A stretch of 64,000 bases of DNA, taken from NCBI GenBank assembly GCA_000004695.1, contig CM000154.2:4320001-4384000 (forward strand). The letters run 5' to 3'. The DNA comes from Dictyostelium discoideum (taxonomy: Eukaryota). Below, piece after piece: positions 2,112 through 62,317 of the stretch. Each line of letters opens with the position of its first letter. Positions within the stretch are counted from its first letter, which is position 1. The translations under genes were made by a program, and so were the position numbers. A model generated the notes under the pieces. That model saw only the letters and a list, made by a program, of their open reading frames with translations. It made no database searches and was not told the DNA's origin.

Positions 2112-4310
2112 TTATGATGATGCAAGTTCTTGTTGATCTTGTAGTTTTTTCTTTGCAGCAGCTTTACCAACTAATTTCTTTGGTTTTGAAGTTTGTTGAG
2201 GTGCGGTGCCAGTTTCAACGAAATCGAGTATTATTTTGATAGTTTTGGTTTTAGTTTTATTCTTTGGAAGGTCATGAATTTTACAGTATTCTAATAAATC
2301 TGAAAGATTAAAGTTATTTTGTAAAAATCCTCTTTCAATTCCTTTCTTTATATAATCAAATGATGGGCATATCCATTTTCTATCATGAGTATAATAACCT
2401 TTAATCTCTGAAGACGCTGTTGATTGATAGTCCATTATATTATTATTATTATCATCATCATCATCGTCGTCATCATCCTCTGATAATAAACCATTACCAT
2501 TACCGTTACTACTTCCAAAATTACTAAAATTATCGTTTTGTTCTCTGTCTGATTCATTCTCACTATTTATTTCTACATCATTACTACTATTATTATTTTG
2601 AATACCATTACTATTATCTTCCTCTTCTTCTTCTTCTTGTTCTTCTGCTGCTGCTTCTTCGTTACCATTATTATTATCTTGTTTTCTTTTTCTTTTTCCA
2701 TTTGTTATTATTTTAGTTGTTTCTTTCTTTTTAGTAGTGGGCTTTGATTTTATTGTTGTGGAGGTTGATGTTTTTGCTATGGTAGATTTGGGTTTTGTAG
2801 TGGTTGTAGTTGTGGTGGTTGTTGTAGGGGTTGGCTTTGCTGTTGAAGCAGATTGGGCGCTACCGCTTCCTGGTTTTGATTTTTGTTCTGGTTGTAAATG
2901 TACAGGGTCCAATGGTAATGGTTTTCTCTCCCTTTTACCAGGAAGAGTTGGAGTTAATGGTTTATCTGATGATGGTTTATCCAATGATGATCTTAATTTC
3001 TTTTTTGGTTGTTCTGTGTTTGTTAAATTTTGTGATTTTTCGGTATTTTTTGTTGTTGATTGTACAGTTGTTGTTGTTGTTGTTGTTGTTGCTTGAGATT
3101 TTGATGTTTTTGGTGCTGGTTTTGATGGTGCTTCTGTTGGTGGTGATATTATAGTTGAGTTAGTTTTTGGTGCTATTATATTTGTTGGTGGTGTTGTTGT
3201 GGTTGTTGTTGTTGTTGCCTGTGGTGGTGTTGTAGTGGTTGTTGGTACTATGCCTGCAGTTTCAGTTGTTGGTGATTTAGTTGCTGGCTGTTTTTTAGTT
3301 GGTGCTTTTTTTGGTACACCCTTTTTAGCTTTTGATGGAGTTGTCTCTTTATTTGGTGAATTTGTACCACTATTGTCAGTGGGAGTTGTTGTTGTTGTTG
3401 TTGTTGCTGCTGCTATTGAGGTAGTGTTTGTCAATGGTGTTGTACTTGGAATTGGTGAAGTTGTAGAAGTAGTTGTGGTAGTATTAGTTGGTGGAACTAC
3501 TGTTGGAGTTGATGCAATTGTTGGAGTTGTAGTTGTAGTTGTTGTAGTTGTTGTTGGTGGTGGTGGTACTGCTGCGGTTGTTGTAGTAGTTGTTGTTGTT
3601 GCTGCTGCTGTAGTTGTAGTGTCAGGTGATTCTTCTAAATCATACATTGTACTCATGATTGAATCACATAGCGCACCCATATCATCTTTTATTTGAATTT
3701 TTAAATCTCTACAAAAGCTTTCTAAAGTTTTCTTATCTAATTTAAATAAAATTTTGAAGATACCTTGCATCATCATCTCCTCTTCTATTTTATATATCAT
3801 CTCATTGGTGTCTATGGAATTCTCTTGTTGGTCTAAACCTAATAAATTGAATGATTCTTTCAATTGTTTTGGATCTAGTATATATAATGTCTTTTTAATG
3901 TCTTTTCCTTCTTTAATAGTTGTACCAATAATCTGTGCAAATGATTCCGAATTTGGAATTGTTGTTAACCAACCATAAGATTCATCCCATATATTACTTT
4001 TAATAATTGGTAAATAATCTAATTTATTTATTACCATTGGTTTATTATTATTATTATCAGCTGTAGTTCCACCATTTGCAGTTAATTTATTATCTTGAGT
4101 TGTAGTTGCACCACCTTCTTTAGTTGTAGATGATGATGGTGGTTGCTGCTGCTGTTGTTGTTGTTGTTGTTGTTCTGCTGTGGTTGATGCTAATGTTGTG
4201 TTTGGTATTTTAAGTTCATTTAATGATTCAACTGCTAATTTAAGTGATTCTTCTGATAATTTTGCAAATGGTTGCATTATAATGTCAGCTGGTACAGCTG
4301 ATTCACTCAT
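2112..4310 (-). CDS. 732-aa low-complexity protein (poly-Gln, long Thr/Pro-rich tracts, acidic Asp/Glu run, Lys-rich C-terminal part with possible SAP-like helix-loop-helix)
   Basis: Single long ORF from ATG at 4310 to stop at 2112. Coding (CAA)n, (ACA/ACC)n and (GAT)n repeats. The C-terminal ...LSDLLEYCKIHDLPKNKTKTKTIKIILDFVETG resembles a SAP motif (weak). The plus-strand ORFs over the same span (2737-3696) are antisense low-complexity artefacts. Confidence 0.6.
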   Translation of the reverse strand: MSESAVPADIIMQPFAKLSEESLKLAVESLNELKIPNTTLASTTAEQQQQQQQQQQPPSSSTTKEGGATTTQDNKLTANGGTTADNNNNKPMVINKLDYLPIIKSNIWDESYGWLTTIPNSESFAQIIGTTIKEGKDIKKTLYILDPKQLKESFNLLGLDQQENSIDTNEMIYKIEEEMMMQGIFKILFKLDKKTLESFCRDLKIQIKDDMGALCDSIMSTMYDLEESPDTTTTAAATTTTTTTTAAVPPPPTTTTTTTTTTPTIASTPTVVPPTNTTTTTSTTSPIPSTTPLTNTTSIAAATTTTTTTPTDNSGTNSPNKETTPSKAKKGVPKKAPTKKQPATKSPTTETAGIVPTTTTTPPQATTTTTTTTPPTNIIAPKTNSTIISPPTEAPSKPAPKTSKSQATTTTTTTTVQSTTKNTEKSQNLTNTEQPKKKLRSSLDKPSSDKPLTPTLPGKRERKPLPLDPVHLQPEQKSKPGSGSAQSASTAKPTPTTTTTTTTTTKPKSTIAKTSTSTTIKSKPTTKKKETTKIITNGKRKRKQDNNNGNEEAAAEEQEEEEEEDNSNGIQNNNSSNDVEINSENESDREQNDNFSNFGSSNGNGNGLLSEDDDDDDDDDNNNNIMDYQSTASSEIKGYYTHDRKWICPSFDYIKKGIERGFLQNNFNLSDLLEYCKIHDLPKNKTKTKTIKIILDFVETGTAPQQTSKPKKLVGKAAAKKKLQDQQELASS

Positions 4311-27031: not shown

Positions 27032-29692
<2,661 letters not shown>

Positions 29693-30087: not shown

Positions 30088-31209
30088 ATGATTAAGAATA
30101 ACTATTACTCACTTTTAAGAGATAAAGTAAAGAATGGTGATCCAAATTTATCGTTTGTTTTAAAAACATGTTCATTACCAAAAAACAAAGATTTATTATT
30201 CTTCTCAAAGAGATTTAATTTAGATATTGAAAATGATATTGATTTTTCAAATAATCATTTATACACCTGTAATTTTATAAATACAAATTGTCAAAATAAA
30301 ACTTTTAATTTAGAAAAACCATTTAAATACTCACTTTTTAATATTAGTTATAATAATAATAACAATAAAAATAATAAAGAATTTTTAAACGATAAACAAT
30401 TTTATAAAGCATTATTTAAAAACTATTATAATTATTTTTTATTTCCAGAACAATTACAACTGCAACAACTGCAACAACTGCAACAACAACAGCCAATACC
30501 AATTAATGGTATTATATATAAATTAATAGTTTATTATGATAATGATATTGCATTAGATATAATAATAAATGAATATAAATTATTAAAATTATCAACATCC
30601 AATGATTACCAATCATTAATAATATTAGCAATTAATAATCATTCATTTAAAGTTACAAATTATCTTTATAAATCAATCATTGAAAATCAAATAAAAATAA
30701 ATTTTAATCATTCAATAATTTGGAAATTAATTTTTCCAATTTATAAAATTAATGGAATTGATTTATTATTTTATAAACTAGAAAATCTATTTTTTAGTAA
30801 TAATAATCAAGATAATAATTTAATAATTCATAAATCAACTAAAGTTGATCCAATAATTAAATATTTAATATTAAATAATAATAACAATAATTTAGAATTT
30901 AAATTATCAATTAAATCAGTACCAAAAGAACTTGAATTATTAAATTATAGAATCGATTATTTAGTATATCAAGTAACAGTAGAGACATTATTAAATTCAT
31001 GTTTTACTATTTCAATTCTAAATATATCATCAGAGATTTGGAAATTAAATAAATTAAATTTATGTACAACTAGTTTTGGTTCAAGTGATTCAATTACAGA
31101 TAAATTATTACAAGAAGATTATCAAATATTATCAATTGATCAACTAAATCAATATAAATCCAAGTTAATAAATTTAAATATTTTACCAACTATAATTAGC
31201 GATTTAGAT

Positions 31210-31276
<67 letters not shown>

Positions 31277-32619
31277 GTGTTGAATTTATAATTTCCAAAC
31301 TTATAAAAATGATTACATATTTTTCAGTAGATAAAAATACAATTAATAATCATTTATTTTATTCAATAATGTATTATGATCATAATAAAGATGATGATGA
31401 ATATTATAGTGGTAAGAATAATAATAGCAGTGGTGATAATTTAAAAATAATAAAGAAAAGAAACTTCTTTAAATTAATAACAGGAATAGAAGAGAGAACT
31501 ATACTTTTTAAATATTGTAAAGGTAAAAGAGAATTACAAATTCAATTTTTAAATTATTTTTTAGAAAATCTTGGAAAAACTGTACTTTTAAGTACATTCA
31601 AATTATTTATTGAATTAGATGTTCATTTAGAACTTATGGACATAATTACAAGAGAATTAAAATTAAAACTATTCAACAACATACCAACCCAACCACTCCC
31701 TCCTCATACTCTTACTCAATATTCTTCAAAACCAGTACAACAGCCACAACAACCACTTCAACCAATATTAGTATTTGAAACACCAAATTCAATTAGAATG
31801 TTTGATTATCTTTATAATAATGATAATTTACCGATGTACAGATTTGAAATTAGTGAAATTTTATTTAAAAATAATTTAGTATCCAAAACAACATCTTCAT
31901 CATCATCAAATGATTTCAAAAGAAATGAAAATGAAAATCATTTAAATAATAAATTAATAGCTATTTTAAATCATTTTAAAATAAACTATACATTAGATTA
32001 TGAATCTCAATTGGAAAGAATTAAAAATGAAGTCATATCACCAACATTAAAACAATCAACAATTAATTTCATCTTTAATAATTTTAATGATTTTAAAGAA
32101 ATTATAATATCAATTTTTAATAATAATATTAATCATACTAATAATAATAGCAATATCAATAGTGAAGAAATTTTAAATAATATAAACAAACTAAAATATT
32201 TTTGTAATGGTTTAATAGATTGTTCAATGGATGGATTATTACCATTATATAATTATTTAGAAACTAATAATAGAATAGAGATTGAAGATGATTATGTTTT
32301 AGTTGAAATTTGTAAACGTGGTGATTTAAATGGTTTAGAACAAATTTTAATAAGAAATAATAAGTTAGTAATTAAAAGGGTATTAAGTTGTTCAATAGTG
32401 TTTGGTCAATTGAAGATGTTTGAATATATAAATAGCTCTAAGCATAGTTGGATATTGTCTAATTTATCAAATACTACATCCCCAATTTCATTATATGATT
32501 TTGACCAATTCATTGAATATGCAATCAAATATTGTCAATACCATTTTATTGATTATTTTAGAGACGTTTTAAAATTAAAATTAAAATCACTTTATAACAT
32601 TAATAAATCATTTATTTAA
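30088..32619 (+). CDS. hypothetical 843-aa protein, paralog B of the tandem pair
   Basis: Collinear with 27032-29692 at ~85-90% aa identity over most of the length, with indels in the N-terminal 100 aa and the poly-N tract. It has the same conserved upstream mini-ORF (29857-29970, MESDKNKEILFWNVFRNVYIFKIIKSYLKIKTNSFRIV, ending GTAATT). Confidence 0.6.
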
Positions 32620-32726: not shown

Positions 32727-34592
32727 TTAATTGAACTCTTCTTTAATAATTAAACCATTTGACCATTGTTGGAATGCCCATTGAGTTTTTTGAACACGGT
32801 TACCACCATAAGTGAAATCCATAAACATTTCATATGCTGAATTTTCACCATCGACAATTGTTTTTAAAACTTTAGCTTCATGAATAGTTGCGTTACTGAC
32901 AAAAGCTTCTTCAGCAGCACGGTTGGCAGCTTTACCAACACGATTGGTTGAATCACCTTTTTCAAACATAACAATTTCGTCATGATAGTATTTTTCAAAT
33001 ACTTCTAAAATCTTATTATCTTGAATACCTTTAATAACTGCTTCTAAATTTGCTCTAATATCATGTGTTTTGGTAGTTTCTTCGGTGGTGGTTTGTTCAG
33101 ATGCTACAACAACTGCTGCTGCTTCTTCAACTTTAGTTTCTTCAGTGGTGGCTGATGCTGATGCTGGTGCTGGACCTTTATTTTCATTGAATTCTTCTTT
33201 AATTACTAAACCATTTGACCATTGTTGGAATGCCCATTGAGTTTTTTGGACACGATGGCCACCATAAGTGAAATCCATAAACATTTCATAAGCGGTATTA
33301 TCACCATCAACAATTGTTTTTAAAACTTTAGCTTCATGAATAGTTGCATTATTAACAAATGATTCTTCGGCTTTTCTATTGGCTTCTTTACCAACACGAT
33401 TGGTTGAATCACCATTTTCAAACATAACGATTTCATCATGATAATATTTATCAAATACTTCTAAAATTCTACCTTCTTGAATACCTTTAATAATTGAATC
33501 TAAATTTGCTCTAATATCATGAGTAACTGGTGGAACAACAACTGCTGCTGCTTCTTCAACTTTAGTTTCTTCAGTGGCTGGTGTTGGAGTTGCAGCTGGA
33601 GCTGGACCTTTATTTTCGTTGAATTCTTCTTTAATAATTAAACCATTAGACCATTGTTGGAAACACCATTGAGTTTTTTGAACACGATGACCACCATAAG
33701 TGAAATCCATAAACATTTCATAAGCGGTATTATCACCATCAACGATAGTTTTTAAAACTTTAGCTTCATGAATAGTTGCATTACTAACAAAGGCTTCTTC
33801 GGCTTTTCTATTGGCCTCTTTACCAACACGATTGGTTGAATCACCATTTTCAAACATAACAATTTCATCATGATAGTATTTTTCAAATACTTCTAAAATC
33901 TTATTATCTTGAATACCTTTAATAACTGCTTCTAAATTTGCTCTAATATCATGTGTTTTGGTAGTTTCTTCGGTGGTGCTGGTGGTGGTGGCTGGTGCTG
34001 GAGTTGCAGCTGGAGCTGGACCTTTATTTTCATTGAATTCTTCTTTAATTACTAAACCATTTGACCATTGTTGGAAACACCATTGAGTTTTTTGGACACG
34101 ATGGCCACCATAAGTGAAATCCATAAACATTTCATAAGCGGTATTATCACCATCAACAATAGTTTTTAAAACTTTAGCTTCATGAATAGTTGCATTACTA
34201 ACAAAGGCTTCTTCGGCTTTTCTATTGGCTTCTTTACCAACACGATTGGTTGAGTCACCATTTTCAAACATAACGATTTCATCATGATAATATTTTTCGA
34301 ATACTTCTAAAATCTTATTATCTTGAATACCTTTGATGATTGCTTCTAAATTTGCTCTAATATCATGAGTAGTTGTTGTTGTTGGTGTACTAGTAGCAGT
34401 GGTGGTGGTGTTATTTGTATTTGGTGATGTTTCAGTTGCAACAATTGTTGTTGTAGTTGCTTCAGTAGTTGGAACTGGAGTGGTTGTAGTTGGTTCTGTT
34501 GTTGGTGCTGCGACTGGTTCTGTTGATTTTTTATTATCTTTGGATTTTTTAGATTTACCTAAACCCAAAACTTTCTTAAATTTCTTGAACAT
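32727..34592 (-). CDS. 621-aa protein with four tandem NTF2/SnoaL-like domains (~140-aa units) behind a Lys-rich N-terminus and Thr-rich linker
   Basis: The four-times repeated unit is THDIRANLEA(I/V)IKGIQDNKILEVFEKYYHDEIVMFENGDSTNRVGKEANRKAEEAFVSNATIHEAKVLKTIVDGDNTAYEMFMDFTYGGHRVQKTQWCFQQWSNGL(I/V)IKEEFNENKGPAPA. The YE.FMDFTYGG...Q..W.FQ.W.NG.I..E.F pattern is typical of the NTF2-like/SnoaL polyketide-cyclase-like fold. The DNA repeats are >90% identical. Confidence 0.6.
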   Translation of the reverse strand: MFKKFKKVLGLGKSKKSKDNKKSTEPVAAPTTEPTTTTPVPTTEATTTTIVATETSPNTNNTTTTATSTPTTTTTHDIRANLEAIIKGIQDNKILEVFEKYYHDEIVMFENGDSTNRVGKEANRKAEEAFVSNATIHEAKVLKTIVDGDNTAYEMFMDFTYGGHRVQKTQWCFQQWSNGLVIKEEFNENKGPAPAATPAPATTTSTTEETTKTHDIRANLEAVIKGIQDNKILEVFEKYYHDEIVMFENGDSTNRVGKEANRKAEEAFVSNATIHEAKVLKTIVDGDNTAYEMFMDFTYGGHRVQKTQWCFQQWSNGLIIKEEFNENKGPAPAATPTPATEETKVEEAAAVVVPPVTHDIRANLDSIIKGIQEGRILEVFDKYYHDEIVMFENGDSTNRVGKEANRKAEESFVNNATIHEAKVLKTIVDGDNTAYEMFMDFTYGGHRVQKTQWAFQQWSNGLVIKEEFNENKGPAPASASATTEETKVEEAAAVVVASEQTTTEETTKTHDIRANLEAVIKGIQDNKILEVFEKYYHDEIVMFEKGDSTNRVGKAANRAAEEAFVSNATIHEAKVLKTIVDGENSAYEMFMDFTYGGNRVQKTQWAFQQWSNGLIIKEEFN

Positions 34593-36437: not shown

Positions 36438-37592
36438 ATGATAACTATTTCAGAAGAATTAGAGAATTATTCTCTTTCAAAATTTTTTGAAAAATGTTAT
36501 TATTATTTATTTAAAAATTGGTCAACAACAACCACCACAACAACTGCAACTACAAAAACAAAATTAAATAAAAATAAAATTAGTAAAAAGAATGAAAAAA
36601 ATCATATTTCACATCAAACTCAATATATAAAAAATGACAATAATTCTTTAAATAATAGTAATAGTAACTGTTGTAATAGTAATAATAATGATAGTAATAA
36701 TAATATAAAATTAAAAAATGAAAAAGAAGAATTAATTAATAATAATAATAATGAAAAAAAAACAATTTATTCATTAGTTGGAATTGAAGAAGCACCAGAA
36801 CATTTAAAAAGAGAATTTATATTGAATGGATATAGGGTAGATTTTTCATATTTATTATGTTTTAAATCAGTGTTGATATTTGGACATAACGATTTCGCTA
36901 ATATACATAGTCATTTAATACCGGCATTGTTTTTTATGTATACATTGTGGGGAGTGTTGACAGGATCGAGTGGAGGTTATAACGATTATGCAACTTTTGA
37001 TAGCGGTGACAAGATAGTGTTCACCATATTCATTGGGGCAGCCATCACCACCTACATCCTGTCGTTCCTATATCATACGTTTGGGTGCCACTCATTATGT
37101 ACCTATTCGAAATTGTTGGTATGTGATTATTTGGGAATCATCCTATTGATAGGGTCTAGTTTTTTTCCACCACTTTATTATTCGTTCAAGGCGAATCATA
37201 TCGGGTTAATGATATTTTATATGGGTTCAATTACAATGTTGTGTTTGTTATTGGCAATCATGGTTTTAATACCATCGTTGGCCGATAAGAATACTCTAAG
37301 AAATACTTTATTCTGTTTAACGGCTTTGTTTGGTATTGTGCCTTCAATTCACACACTTTTCATTTACCCAGCCCAAGAGGTGTATTACTTTATATTCCGT
37401 TTGGTTTGTATGTTTTTAATTTATGGTGCTGGTTTATTAGTTTACATCTATAGAATTCCTGAAAGTTTAATACCTGGTTATTTCGATTCAATTGTAACAA
37501 GTCATTCAGTTTGGCATTTCTTTACTGCTTATGCTACTTTTTTTAGTTTAAATACTTATTTAGAATTATATAGTAAAATTTCAAATCTATAA
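36438..37592 (+). CDS. PAQR / hemolysin-III / adiponectin-receptor family 7-TM protein, 384 aa
   Basis: After a poly-N/T N-terminal region: ...EHLKREFILNGYRVDFSYLLCFKSVLIFGHNDFANIHSHLIPALFF (PAQR motif ..GYR...S......F..HNET.N(I)W(S/T)HL). Seven hydrophobic segments follow. The C-terminal ...SHSVWHFFTAYATFF matches the family HxxxH motif. Confidence 0.75.
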   Translation: MITISEELENYSLSKFFEKCYYYLFKNWSTTTTTTTATTKTKLNKNKISKKNEKNHISHQTQYIKNDNNSLNNSNSNCCNSNNNDSNNNIKLKNEKEELINNNNNEKKTIYSLVGIEEAPEHLKREFILNGYRVDFSYLLCFKSVLIFGHNDFANIHSHLIPALFFMYTLWGVLTGSSGGYNDYATFDSGDKIVFTIFIGAAITTYILSFLYHTFGCHSLCTYSKLLVCDYLGIILLIGSSFFPPLYYSFKANHIGLMIFYMGSITMLCLLLAIMVLIPSLADKNTLRNTLFCLTALFGIVPSIHTLFIYPAQEVYYFIFRLVCMFLIYGAGLLVYIYRIPESLIPGYFDSIVTSHSVWHFFTAYATFFSLNTYLELYSKISNL

Positions 37593-60154: not shown

Positions 60155-60606
60155 TTAAAACCAACCAGACATAAAAGATCCTTTTTCTTTTTCTTTTTCT
60201 TTTCCATTGCCATTACCATTCTGAATTGGTGATGATGTATTACTATTATTATTTGGTGGCGAAAATAATGGTTGTGTTTGAGTTTGAGTTGTTTGAATTT
60301 GTGGTGGTTGCATTTGAATTTGTGGATTGTGACTATTTTGTTGTTGTTGTTGTTGTTGTTGCTGTAAATTTGATTTTAAATTTAATGGATCTAATAATGG
60401 TTGTGGTTGTAAATTATGTGGTGATTGAGCGCCATTACTTAATGATTCTTGTGTTATTATAAAGCTATTATGATTAATACTACTGCTACTATTACTACTA
60501 TTATTACTATTATTATTATTTGATTTTACAATTGGTGATGAATTTGATTTTATATTGCTATTTGTATTATTCGTACTATTATTATTATTATTATTTGTAT
60601 TATTAC

Positions 60607-60685
<79 letters not shown>

Positions 60686-62317
60686 TAAACCTTTTAATTG
60701 ATTTAATTCCTGAATTAATTTTAAATTATCTTTTTTTGAATCATTTAATTGATTAGAGATATCAATATATTCTTGTCTTTGAGTTAGAATTGAATCTTTG
60801 AATTTATTTTTCATTTCATCCATTGTTGTTAATGATTGTTGATAACGAGTTAACATTTGACTATATCTTTCATTTGAGAATTCAAATTTACCTTCAGATT
60901 CTTCCAATTTTCTTTTTAAATCATCGTTTTCTTCATGAAGTTGTTTCTCTAATTTCAATACTCTTTGTTTATGAGTATCTCTCTCCAAAGTGACAGTTTT
61001 TAAATCGATTTTCAATTTTTCAATGGTTGAATTCATAGAGATTGATTTCACTTCAGTTTCTGATATTTTATTGGTTAAATCTGATATTTTATTCATTAGA
61101 TCTTCTCTCTCTCTTTGAAGTGTACGAATTGTATCTCTAAGCTGTGATGGATCTCTATTCATTAAATTATCTCTTGCTGGTGTTGGTTTATTATTTGGTG
61201 TTGATGTTGATGATGATGATGTTGATGTTGTTGTTGGTCTAGTTGGGCTTGACAATATTCTACCTGATGTTGTCATTAATGTTGTACTTGCTATTGGTTT
61301 CTTTAATGGACTTGGTGTTGGTTTATTAAGTGATGATGATGATGATGATGATGATGATGTTGTTGTACTAGTAATTGGTCTATGGAGTGATGATGATGAT
61401 GTTGATGTTGTTGATGGTGTTGGTTTATGAAGTGATGATGATGTTGTTGTTGTATCTTTATGAGTATGCTCTTTACTATCAGAATGAGTTGAATAAGAAG
61501 ATAATACAGGTGATGCATCAATTGGTGATGTTTTATTTGAAGAAGGTGGAGTTGGTGATACTCTTGGTGTTAATTTATTTGAACCTAAACTACTACTACC
61601 ACCACCACCACCACCACTACTACTATTATTATTTGCAGGCATTGGTGGTTTTAATGATGATCCTGATGATGATAAACTCTTTCTATCTTTTGTTGTTGTT
61701 GTTGTTGTTGTTGTTGATGGTGTATCTGTTGATTTATTCGATGATATACTTGGTCTAGATGATGATGATGATGATGATGATGATTTTGAAGGTAATGTAT
61801 GATGATGAGAATCAGTTTTTTTCATCATTGATGCTACAGTTGGTGTTGATAATTTATCAGTTAATTTTTTAGATGATAAAGTTGATGAAGCTGAATTTGA
61901 AGTTGAAGAAGTAGAGGAAGTACCTCCTGTTGTTGATTTTCTTGGACCTGGGAATGTACTTGATAATGATGTTGATGATAATCTATCAGACATTAATGGA
62001 TTTGATTTTAATGTAGTTGAATTATTTGATGTTGATGATAAATTTGTTTTTGATTTATTGGCTGTTAAAGTTGATGGTGTTTTTTTTACAGTTGATGATG
62101 TTGTTGATGATGATGATGATGATGATGATAATGATTTAGTTTTTGATAATGTTGATGAAATTGGTGTTGTTGAAACTGGTTTGTGTGGTGTTGATGATAT
62201 TGTAGTTGTAGTTGTTGAAGATGGATGTGTAGCTGTTGATGGTTTAGTTGATTCATTTATAGATTTCTTATCACCATCATTATTACCACCATTAATTAAT
62301 GAGGTTGGGCTTGACAT
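60155..62317 (-). CDS. 720-aa Ser/Thr-rich coiled-coil protein with poly-Asn/poly-Gln and C-terminal (GN)n(KE)n tail
   Basis: Single long minus-strand ORF. N-terminal 420 aa are S/T/P-rich low complexity. Residues ~420-560 are heptad-like (LRDTIRTLQREREDLMNKISDLTNKISETE...LERDTHKQRVLKLEKQLHEENDDLKRKLEE...). Then N(30), Q-rich, ...GNGNGKEKEKEKGSFMSGWF*. The coiled-coil coding DNA at 60755-60850 is the source or homologue of the spacer-element fragment. Confidence 0.6.

Follow-up and report, generated by a model that had tools for sequence, protein, structure and literature searches.

Proteins of the NTF2/SnoaL fold usually function as dimers or tetramers, and tandem copies of the fold in one chain have a known precedent in the polyether epoxide hydrolases, Lsd19 reportedly being one such tandem enzyme. 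The iota-carbonic anhydrase (iota-CA) LCIP63 carries two, three or four NTF2-like repeats in one polypeptide (PMC8425729). Here we describe DDB_G0290603, a gene on the reverse strand of a 64,000-nucleotide stretch of the Dictyostelium discoideum genome (contig CM000154.2, positions 4,320,001 to 4,384,000; hereafter the window), in which four near-identical domains of this fold follow a basic N-terminus. Its open reading frame (ORF) at 32727-34592 (-) is one uninterrupted frame of 621 amino acids (aa) in a single exon, and an exact-sequence look-up identifies it as D. discoideum AX4 DDB_G0290603 (XP_635685.1; UniProt Q54FT2), a real gene that is uncharacterised yet already annotated, under the automatic name 'SnoaL-like domain-containing protein'. 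As the best explanation of the observations as a whole, to which we assign a probability of roughly 0.55, we propose that the product is a predicted cytosolic, membrane-docked 'beads-on-a-string' array of ligand-binding cones.

A preliminary description of this DNA had recognized a single protein with four near-identical units, and the frame bears this out: a repeat search found four copies spaced 456, 432 and 414 nucleotides (nt) apart, Tandem Repeats Finder gave a period of 414 nt with 89% matches, and the cores of the units are pairwise 86-98% identical in aa and 88-95% in nt. The unit length of ~140 aa given in that description holds as the repeat period (that is, core plus linker), whereas the conserved core spans only 113 aa in each of the four units; likewise, the claimed nt identity of >90% applies to four of the six core pairs. 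The cores are joined by linkers of 25, 31 and 39 aa with a high content of Pro, Ala, Thr and Glu, and are preceded by the Lys-rich N-terminus (aa 1-23, MFKKFKKVLGLGKSKKSKDNKKS) and the Thr-rich segment (26 Thr in a 51-aa spacer) that had also been pointed out. This spacer (aa 24-74) differs in length between strains and, in a full-length AlphaFold2 (AF2) prediction from the single sequence, has a predicted local distance difference test score (pLDDT) of ~25, that is, no predicted structure.

Judged from profiles and from a structural model, the earlier assignment of the units to the NTF2/SnoaL fold is correct. The whole protein matches Pfam SnoaL_5 (PF20409) at 1.8e-17 (64.3 bits, four stretches) and also SnoaL_2 (2.3e-16, four stretches), and a lone unit reaches 24.8 bits against SnoaL_5, barely over the gathering threshold of 24.1 bits, so that a significant match to the family, whose lack had been named as grounds for giving up the fold, is present for a unit taken by itself. 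A subfamily profile built from 96 family members recognizes each of the four units at 1e-43 to 1e-45, and finds the structure of the bacterial protein Mlr7391 (PDB 3HK4) with an hmmsearch expectation value (E) of 5e-18 (profile positions 2-115 on chain residues 20-136) and that of a limonene epoxide hydrolase (5AIF) at 1e-7. Modelled by AF2 with the family alignment, unit 2 has a pLDDT of 96.2, and the unit shows the alpha+beta cone, with three helices against a curved antiparallel sheet, by which the NTF2-like superfamily is recognized.

The columns conserved in proteins of the Mlr7391/3HK4 type are retained in all four units, including Y28, G45, W102 and E110, signature residues that are at least 90% conserved in the subfamily. 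The polar residues Y28, E36, K46, N49, R50, E53, E80, D84, T86, Q96, Q100, W102 and E110 are kept in each of the units; N37, another residue of the family signature, is kept in units 1-3 and is K in unit 4. The i/i+2 spacing along the strands (E80/D84/T86, Q96/Q100/W102 and E110/F112) suggests that the conserved residues share one side of the sheet. The family, typified by Mlr7391, is small and mostly bacterial: in an exhaustive phmmer search, 1.84 billion representative sequences yielded only 180 relatives at E<=1e-3, nearly all of them single-domain proteins of 110-125 aa, and a check of these relatives with the profile found complete multi-unit arrays of this subfamily only in dictyostelids. 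Multi-repeat hits that resembled homologs (P0041, with its 25 stretches, P0124 and P0128) proved to be unrelated repetitive proteins with no match to the subfamily profile.

As near-identical repeats of 414-456 nt are a classic source of mis-assembly, the four copies might have been an assembly artefact, or else a decaying repeat without function. An artefact is excluded by the identical 621-aa protein in a second, newer assembly (KAM9948284.1) and by four-unit proteins in seven other assemblies on megabase-scale contigs, among them those of D. dimigraforme, a D. cf. discoideum strain and two further D. discoideum strains as well as a pair from D. citrinum; the intact ORF and ratios of nonsynonymous to synonymous divergence (dN/dS) far under 1 speak against decay, and we give this pair of explanations a negligible chance.

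The number of units is nevertheless polymorphic, a property that the preliminary description had proposed to look for: we found two, four and six. At the syntenic locus, one D. cf. discoideum strain (GCA_054859205.1) has an allele of 343 aa with two units, and the first of these is a mosaic, with a 5' end like unit 1, a middle like unit 2 and a 3' end like unit 3, which points to unequal recombination that removed two units. In D. purpureum, an uninterrupted ORF that follows a 69-nt intron in unit 1 holds six units (GL870969.1, DICPUDRAFT_28055); one of them is largely absent from the annotated 740-aa model. That model appears to splice out ~106 in-frame codons, the frame being open throughout; the 69-nt intron is AT-rich and genuine-looking, and the AX4 gene is intronless. 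Of the loci checked, all three (in D. dimigraforme, in one of the D. citrinum assemblies and in the two-unit strain) are syntenic, with a divergently oriented HlyIII-family gene (window 36438-37592) and a downstream 843-aa gene as neighbours.

Between units, dN/dS is ~0.03-0.3 (Nei-Gojobori), and all units are therefore under purifying selection; given that a Heterostelium unit is still ~75% identical, much of the similarity between units is plain constraint. The 'concerted evolution' of the repeats put forward in the preliminary description survives only in part. At third codon positions, in trees that rest on a small sample of 113 codons per unit, units 1-3 cluster by species (bootstrap 0.56-0.84), and their within-species synonymous divergence (dS) of 0.11-0.33 is under that of positional orthologs (0.27-0.43). 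At first and second codon positions, the same units cluster by position instead (bootstrap 0.69 for the unit 1 orthologs), and unit 3 joins unit 2 of D. dimigraforme (0.85). Unit 4 is a clear positional ortholog: its dS is 0.29 against unit 4 of the sister species and 0.35-0.54 against its neighbours in the same protein, and the unit 4 orthologs form a cross-species clade with a bootstrap of 0.98. Patchy gene conversion that keeps position-specific residues would produce such a conflict between silent and replacement sites.

The domain forms a multigene family in Dictyostelium, Heterostelium, Cavenderia, Acytostelium, Tieghemostelium and Polysphondylium violaceum. Single-domain paralogs of ~112-115 aa (among them DDB_G0284631, DDB_G0270080 and DDB_G0293760) occur in D. 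discoideum together with many two-domain paralogs of 236-237 aa (for example, DDB_G0281999), whose domains are joined by a 15-aa linker and which lack a basic N-terminus. The Heterostelium proteins PPL_10911 (178 aa) and PPL_09333 (174 aa) consist of a basic-hydrophobic N-terminus (MVQIKRFFSKIGNKIHKKG and MGHLKRFFSKLGKKVHKKG, respectively), a linker and one domain, which is likely to be the ancestral layout of DDB_G0290603. Heterostelium PPL_11732 (762 aa) appears to be a gene-prediction chimaera in which a single-domain gene of the subfamily has been merged with an unrelated protein downstream; PPL_10911, which is near-identical to it, stops directly after the domain. In one D. discoideum strain, several 237-aa two-domain paralogs carry the consecutive tags ACTFIR_004700-004702 on one contig, which indicates that family members are also clustered in tandem at another place in the genome.

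Residues 1-23 form the only basic-hydrophobic peak of the protein, with a net charge of +9 and a BH-like score of 0.96 that is restricted to aa 1-24 (on an approximate scale), and a motif of this type is kept in the proteins of D. citrinum, D. dimigraforme, D. purpureum and Heterostelium. Unstructured basic-hydrophobic sites are known to bind membranes electrostatically and by hydrophobic insertion, and this N-terminus suggests that the cones are concentrated on a membrane. A C-terminal hydrophobic segment of ~22 aa (FIIASIGVALFFGVIFSVILILL) in the Heterostelium single-domain paralog PPL_10287 (194 aa), which may be a tail anchor or an artefact of the gene model, points weakly to membrane attachment of the domain family. 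The composition of aa 1-23 would also suit a nuclear or nucleolar protein in which the Lys-rich stretch (KSKKSKDNKKS) is a nuclear localization signal or a nucleic-acid-binding tail rather than a membrane anchor, and Lys-rich nuclear and nucleolar targeting signals have reportedly been described in Dictyostelium. However, the feature conserved across genera is that basic residues are mixed with aromatic or aliphatic ones at the very start of the protein (FKKF, FFKKIF and KRFFSK), a pattern more typical of a membrane-binding amphipathic segment than of a nuclear localization signal, and we consider the nuclear alternative unlikely.

Thr/Pro-rich spacers resemble the O-glycosylated stalks of Dictyostelium surface proteins, and the gene might on that ground be thought to encode a secreted or cell-surface mucin-like protein with its Thr-rich tracts as such stalks. 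This is highly improbable, as no signal peptide or transmembrane segment occurs anywhere in the protein (the maximum 19-residue Kyte-Doolittle mean is 0.78) and Thr-rich tracts are common in clearly intracellular-looking proteins of the window. The window is AT-rich (~20% GC) and contains proteins with poly-Asn, poly-Gln and poly-Thr; long Thr/Ser-rich low-complexity proteins at 2112-4310 (-) and 60155-62317 (-) explain its local peaks in GC and skew and, being Thr-rich as well, indicate that tracts of this kind are commonplace in the D. discoideum genome.

If the units were enzymes of a familiar NTF2-fold type, the protein would be a catalytic array of limonene-epoxide-hydrolase (LEH)-, SnoaL cyclase-, ketosteroid-isomerase- or iota-CA-like domains. 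The named relatives are bacterial (for example, from Acidobacteriaceae), are 38-47% identical to the unit and bear labels such as 'ketosteroid isomerase-like' and 'ester cyclase'; ketosteroid isomerase has a catalytic Tyr/Asp/Asp constellation, and the nogalonic acid methyl ester cyclase SnoaL a catalytic acid/base, Asp121, in its pocket. LEHs have an Asp-Arg-Asp catalytic triad and a Tyr/Asn pair that binds water. In the profile alignment with the LEH 5AIF, Arg78-x-Asp80 falls on M81-x-M83 of the unit and Asn34 on E36, so that the triad is not kept; no Arg occurs in strand residues 78-86 of any of the four units, and a register error of one residue would still yield no Arg-x-Asp. Against SnoaL PF07366, a lone unit scores 15.3 bits (E 0.018), under the cut-off of 28.4 bits, and the 33.9 bits of the whole protein are the sum over the four repeats. 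A lone unit has no Pfam match to CaMKII_AD, DUF4440 or SnoaL_3 at E<=0.1, no iota-CA is among its best 50-60 structural hits, and an NCBIfam scan returned neither a family name nor an equivalog. Because the unit bears the marks of neither LEH nor SnoaL PF07366 nor iota-CA, no known enzymatic mechanism can be assigned to it, and a catalytic array of one of these types is decidedly doubtful.

Near the bacterial homologs, one lineage has a gene for a MarR regulator, and two contigs have one for a class-I O-methyltransferase; these loose and inconsistent associations hint at most at a metabolism of small aromatic molecules. Polyketide binding is a classic function of the SnoaL fold, and the domain family is both expanded and extremely conserved across dictyostelids; tethered to a membrane, the array could conceivably be a multivalent receptor or buffer inside the cell for a small Dictyostelium signalling molecule, such as the polyketides DIF-1 and MPBD. 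The receptor for DIF-1 is still unidentified after ~35 years (PMC11560335). We give this idea a very slim chance, and the polar or acidic, rather than hydrophobic, nature of the conserved residues assigned to the pocket argues mildly against a chlorinated alkylphenone as ligand.

The proposal that we favour can be laid out as follows. A short basic, partly hydrophobic N-terminus and a disordered Thr-rich spacer would be followed by four independently folded SnoaL_5-type cones, joined by flexible Pro/Ala/Thr/Glu linkers. Starting from an ancestor with one domain, the array would have been built up by tandem duplications within the gene through unequal recombination, and it may still be recombining, with gene conversion partly homogenizing units 1-3 and unit 4 escaping it. 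In their pockets, the cones would all bind or convert one and the same small molecule, polar or amphipathic, and multiplication of the cones would raise local capacity or avidity; the preliminary description had suggested that the protein may be a high-valency binding protein. Electrostatic attraction together with hydrophobic insertion of the N-terminal segment would dock the array on acidic membranes.

The same layout could, however, serve a fixed oligomer: the units might fold back on one another as two pseudo-dimers or one pseudo-tetramer, and duplication would then have hard-wired an oligomer rather than added valency. Every copy number above one that we observed is even (the two-domain paralogs, the two-unit allele, four and six), the natural deletion allele lacks exactly two units, linkers of 15-39 aa are long enough for pairing, the 3HK4 crystal has four chains, and units 3 and 4 have position-specific residues that the other species retain, as would fit non-equivalent roles; in the study of iota-CA, NTF2-like enzymes are moreover stated to be dimers (PMC8425729). 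Yet independent observations of copy number are few, the full-length single-sequence AF2 model (pLDDT 39.9; predicted template modelling score, 0.21) has no confident packing between domains, and the long, variable, low-complexity linkers look like spacers rather than a designed tether. We regard such a single-chain pseudo-oligomer as possible, if on the unlikely side.

Several points weigh against the membrane-docked array of independent cones. The units might pair with each other instead of acting independently, and the full-length model is uninformative in this regard. The pocket position of the conserved residues is suggested by strand spacing rather than by coordinates; membrane binding of aa 1-23 is likewise predicted from composition, by which the Lys-rich stretch could also be a nuclear or nucleolar targeting signal. 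The protein of one D. discoideum strain, KAM9970741.1, lacks the seven residues GKSKKSK in its basic segment (MFKKFKKVLGLDNKKS), so that the length of the basic tract is polymorphic within the species. The signal of gene conversion comes from ~113 third positions per unit with moderate bootstrap values (0.56-0.84), and the six-unit gene of D. purpureum, which shows no synteny with the AX4 locus within +/-6 kb, may be an independent expansion. Codon usage, as a proxy for high expression, has no clear bias in DDB_G0290603, and the literature searched contains neither experimental or expression data for the gene nor a paper on it, on Q54FT2 or on the paralogs DDB_G0284631, DDB_G0270080, DDB_G0293760 and DDB_G0281999; a search for SnoaL in Dictyostelium likewise yielded nothing relevant.

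Table 1. Parts of DDB_G0290603, with positions in the window
Feature	Position	Strand	Basis
Complete coding sequence, 621 aa; stop codon at 32727-32729	32727..34592	-	ORF listing; exact match to XP_635685.1/Q54FT2
Basic-hydrophobic N-terminal segment, aa 1-23, MFKKFKKVLGLGKSKKSKDNKKS, net charge +9	34524..34592	-	Composition; motif type conserved in relatives
Thr/Pro-rich low-complexity spacer, aa 24-74, Thr 26/51	34371..34523	-	Composition; AF2 pLDDT ~25
SnoaL_5/NTF2-fold unit 1, aa 75-187	34032..34370	-	Pfam; core alignment; subfamily profile
Linker 1, aa 188-212, ENKGPAPAATPAPATTTSTTEETTK	33957..34031	-	Core alignment
SnoaL_5/NTF2-fold unit 2, aa 213-325 (unit modelled by AF2)	33618..33956	-	
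Linker 2, aa 326-356	33525..33617	-	Core alignment
SnoaL_5/NTF2-fold unit 3, aa 357-469; QEGRIL and ESFVNN common to unit 3 of sister species	33186..33524	-	
Linker 3, aa 470-508	33069..33185	-	Core alignment
SnoaL_5/NTF2-fold unit 4, aa 509-621; most diverged, orthologous to unit 4 of D. citrinum and D. dimigraforme	32730..33068	-	dS/dN; bootstrap 0.98

Downstream of DDB_G0290603, the ORFs at 27032-29692 (+; 886 aa) and 30088-32619 (+; 843 aa) are tandem paralogs. Both are Asn-rich and have no assigned family, and in the sister-species loci they match identical regions; the two-unit strain likewise has two copies.

The locus is mildly interesting beyond its fold. With one, two, four and six units on record and a copy number that is still changing, it is a clean and datable case of intragenic domain amplification, and one in which silent and replacement sites disagree over conversion and positional orthology. 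In social amoebae, whose signals include many polyketides, a bacterial-type SnoaL_5 subfamily has grown into a multigene family of high conservation; the small size of the family and its bacterial homologs raise the possibility of an old transfer of the subfamily from a bacterium to dictyostelids. A ligand or reaction, if found, would annotate the whole 3HK4-type family, bacteria included.

Set beside known systems, the closest proteins are those of the family itself. In the one- and two-domain dictyostelid paralogs, the domains are 70-87% identical to the units of DDB_G0290603, and PPL_10911 and PPL_09333 resemble it in the order of basic N-terminus, linker and domain, with one domain where it has four. 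Mlr7391 of Mesorhizobium loti (3HK4) and its bacterial kin, annotated 'SnoaL-like' among other names, are single-domain proteins of 115-125 aa and, unlike DDB_G0290603, have neither basic N-terminus nor linkers. Limonene-1,2-epoxide hydrolases (5AIF, 1NU3 and 2BNG) share 10-18% identity with the unit, in which their catalytic Arg-x-Asp and water-binding Asn are not conserved. In the polyether enzymes Lsd19 and MonBI/MonBII, the domains have diverged from each other and carry out successive steps, whereas the units of DDB_G0290603 are near-identical, and we know of no polyether pathway in Dictyostelium. LCIP63 is a direct precedent for a concatemer of NTF2 folds, but the likeness is architectural only: its repeats belong to a different NTF2 family (CaMKII-AD/SgcJ-EcaC), and it is targeted by endoplasmic reticulum and chloroplast signal peptides (PMC8425729) in place of a basic N-terminus. 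In the light of LCIP63 with its 2-4 repeats (PMC8425729) and of the many two-domain paralogs in the same genome, the statement that NTF2-like domains normally occur singly was too strong; the tetra-domain layout is unusual in that arrays of this subfamily were found only in dictyostelids, although multi-domain NTF2 precedents exist. No description of such an array combined with a conserved basic N-terminus was found in the literature searched. The domain itself is an everyday member of the very large NTF2/SnoaL superfamily, and its fold assignment alone is not new; what DDB_G0290603 adds is a new architecture within a well-known domain family.

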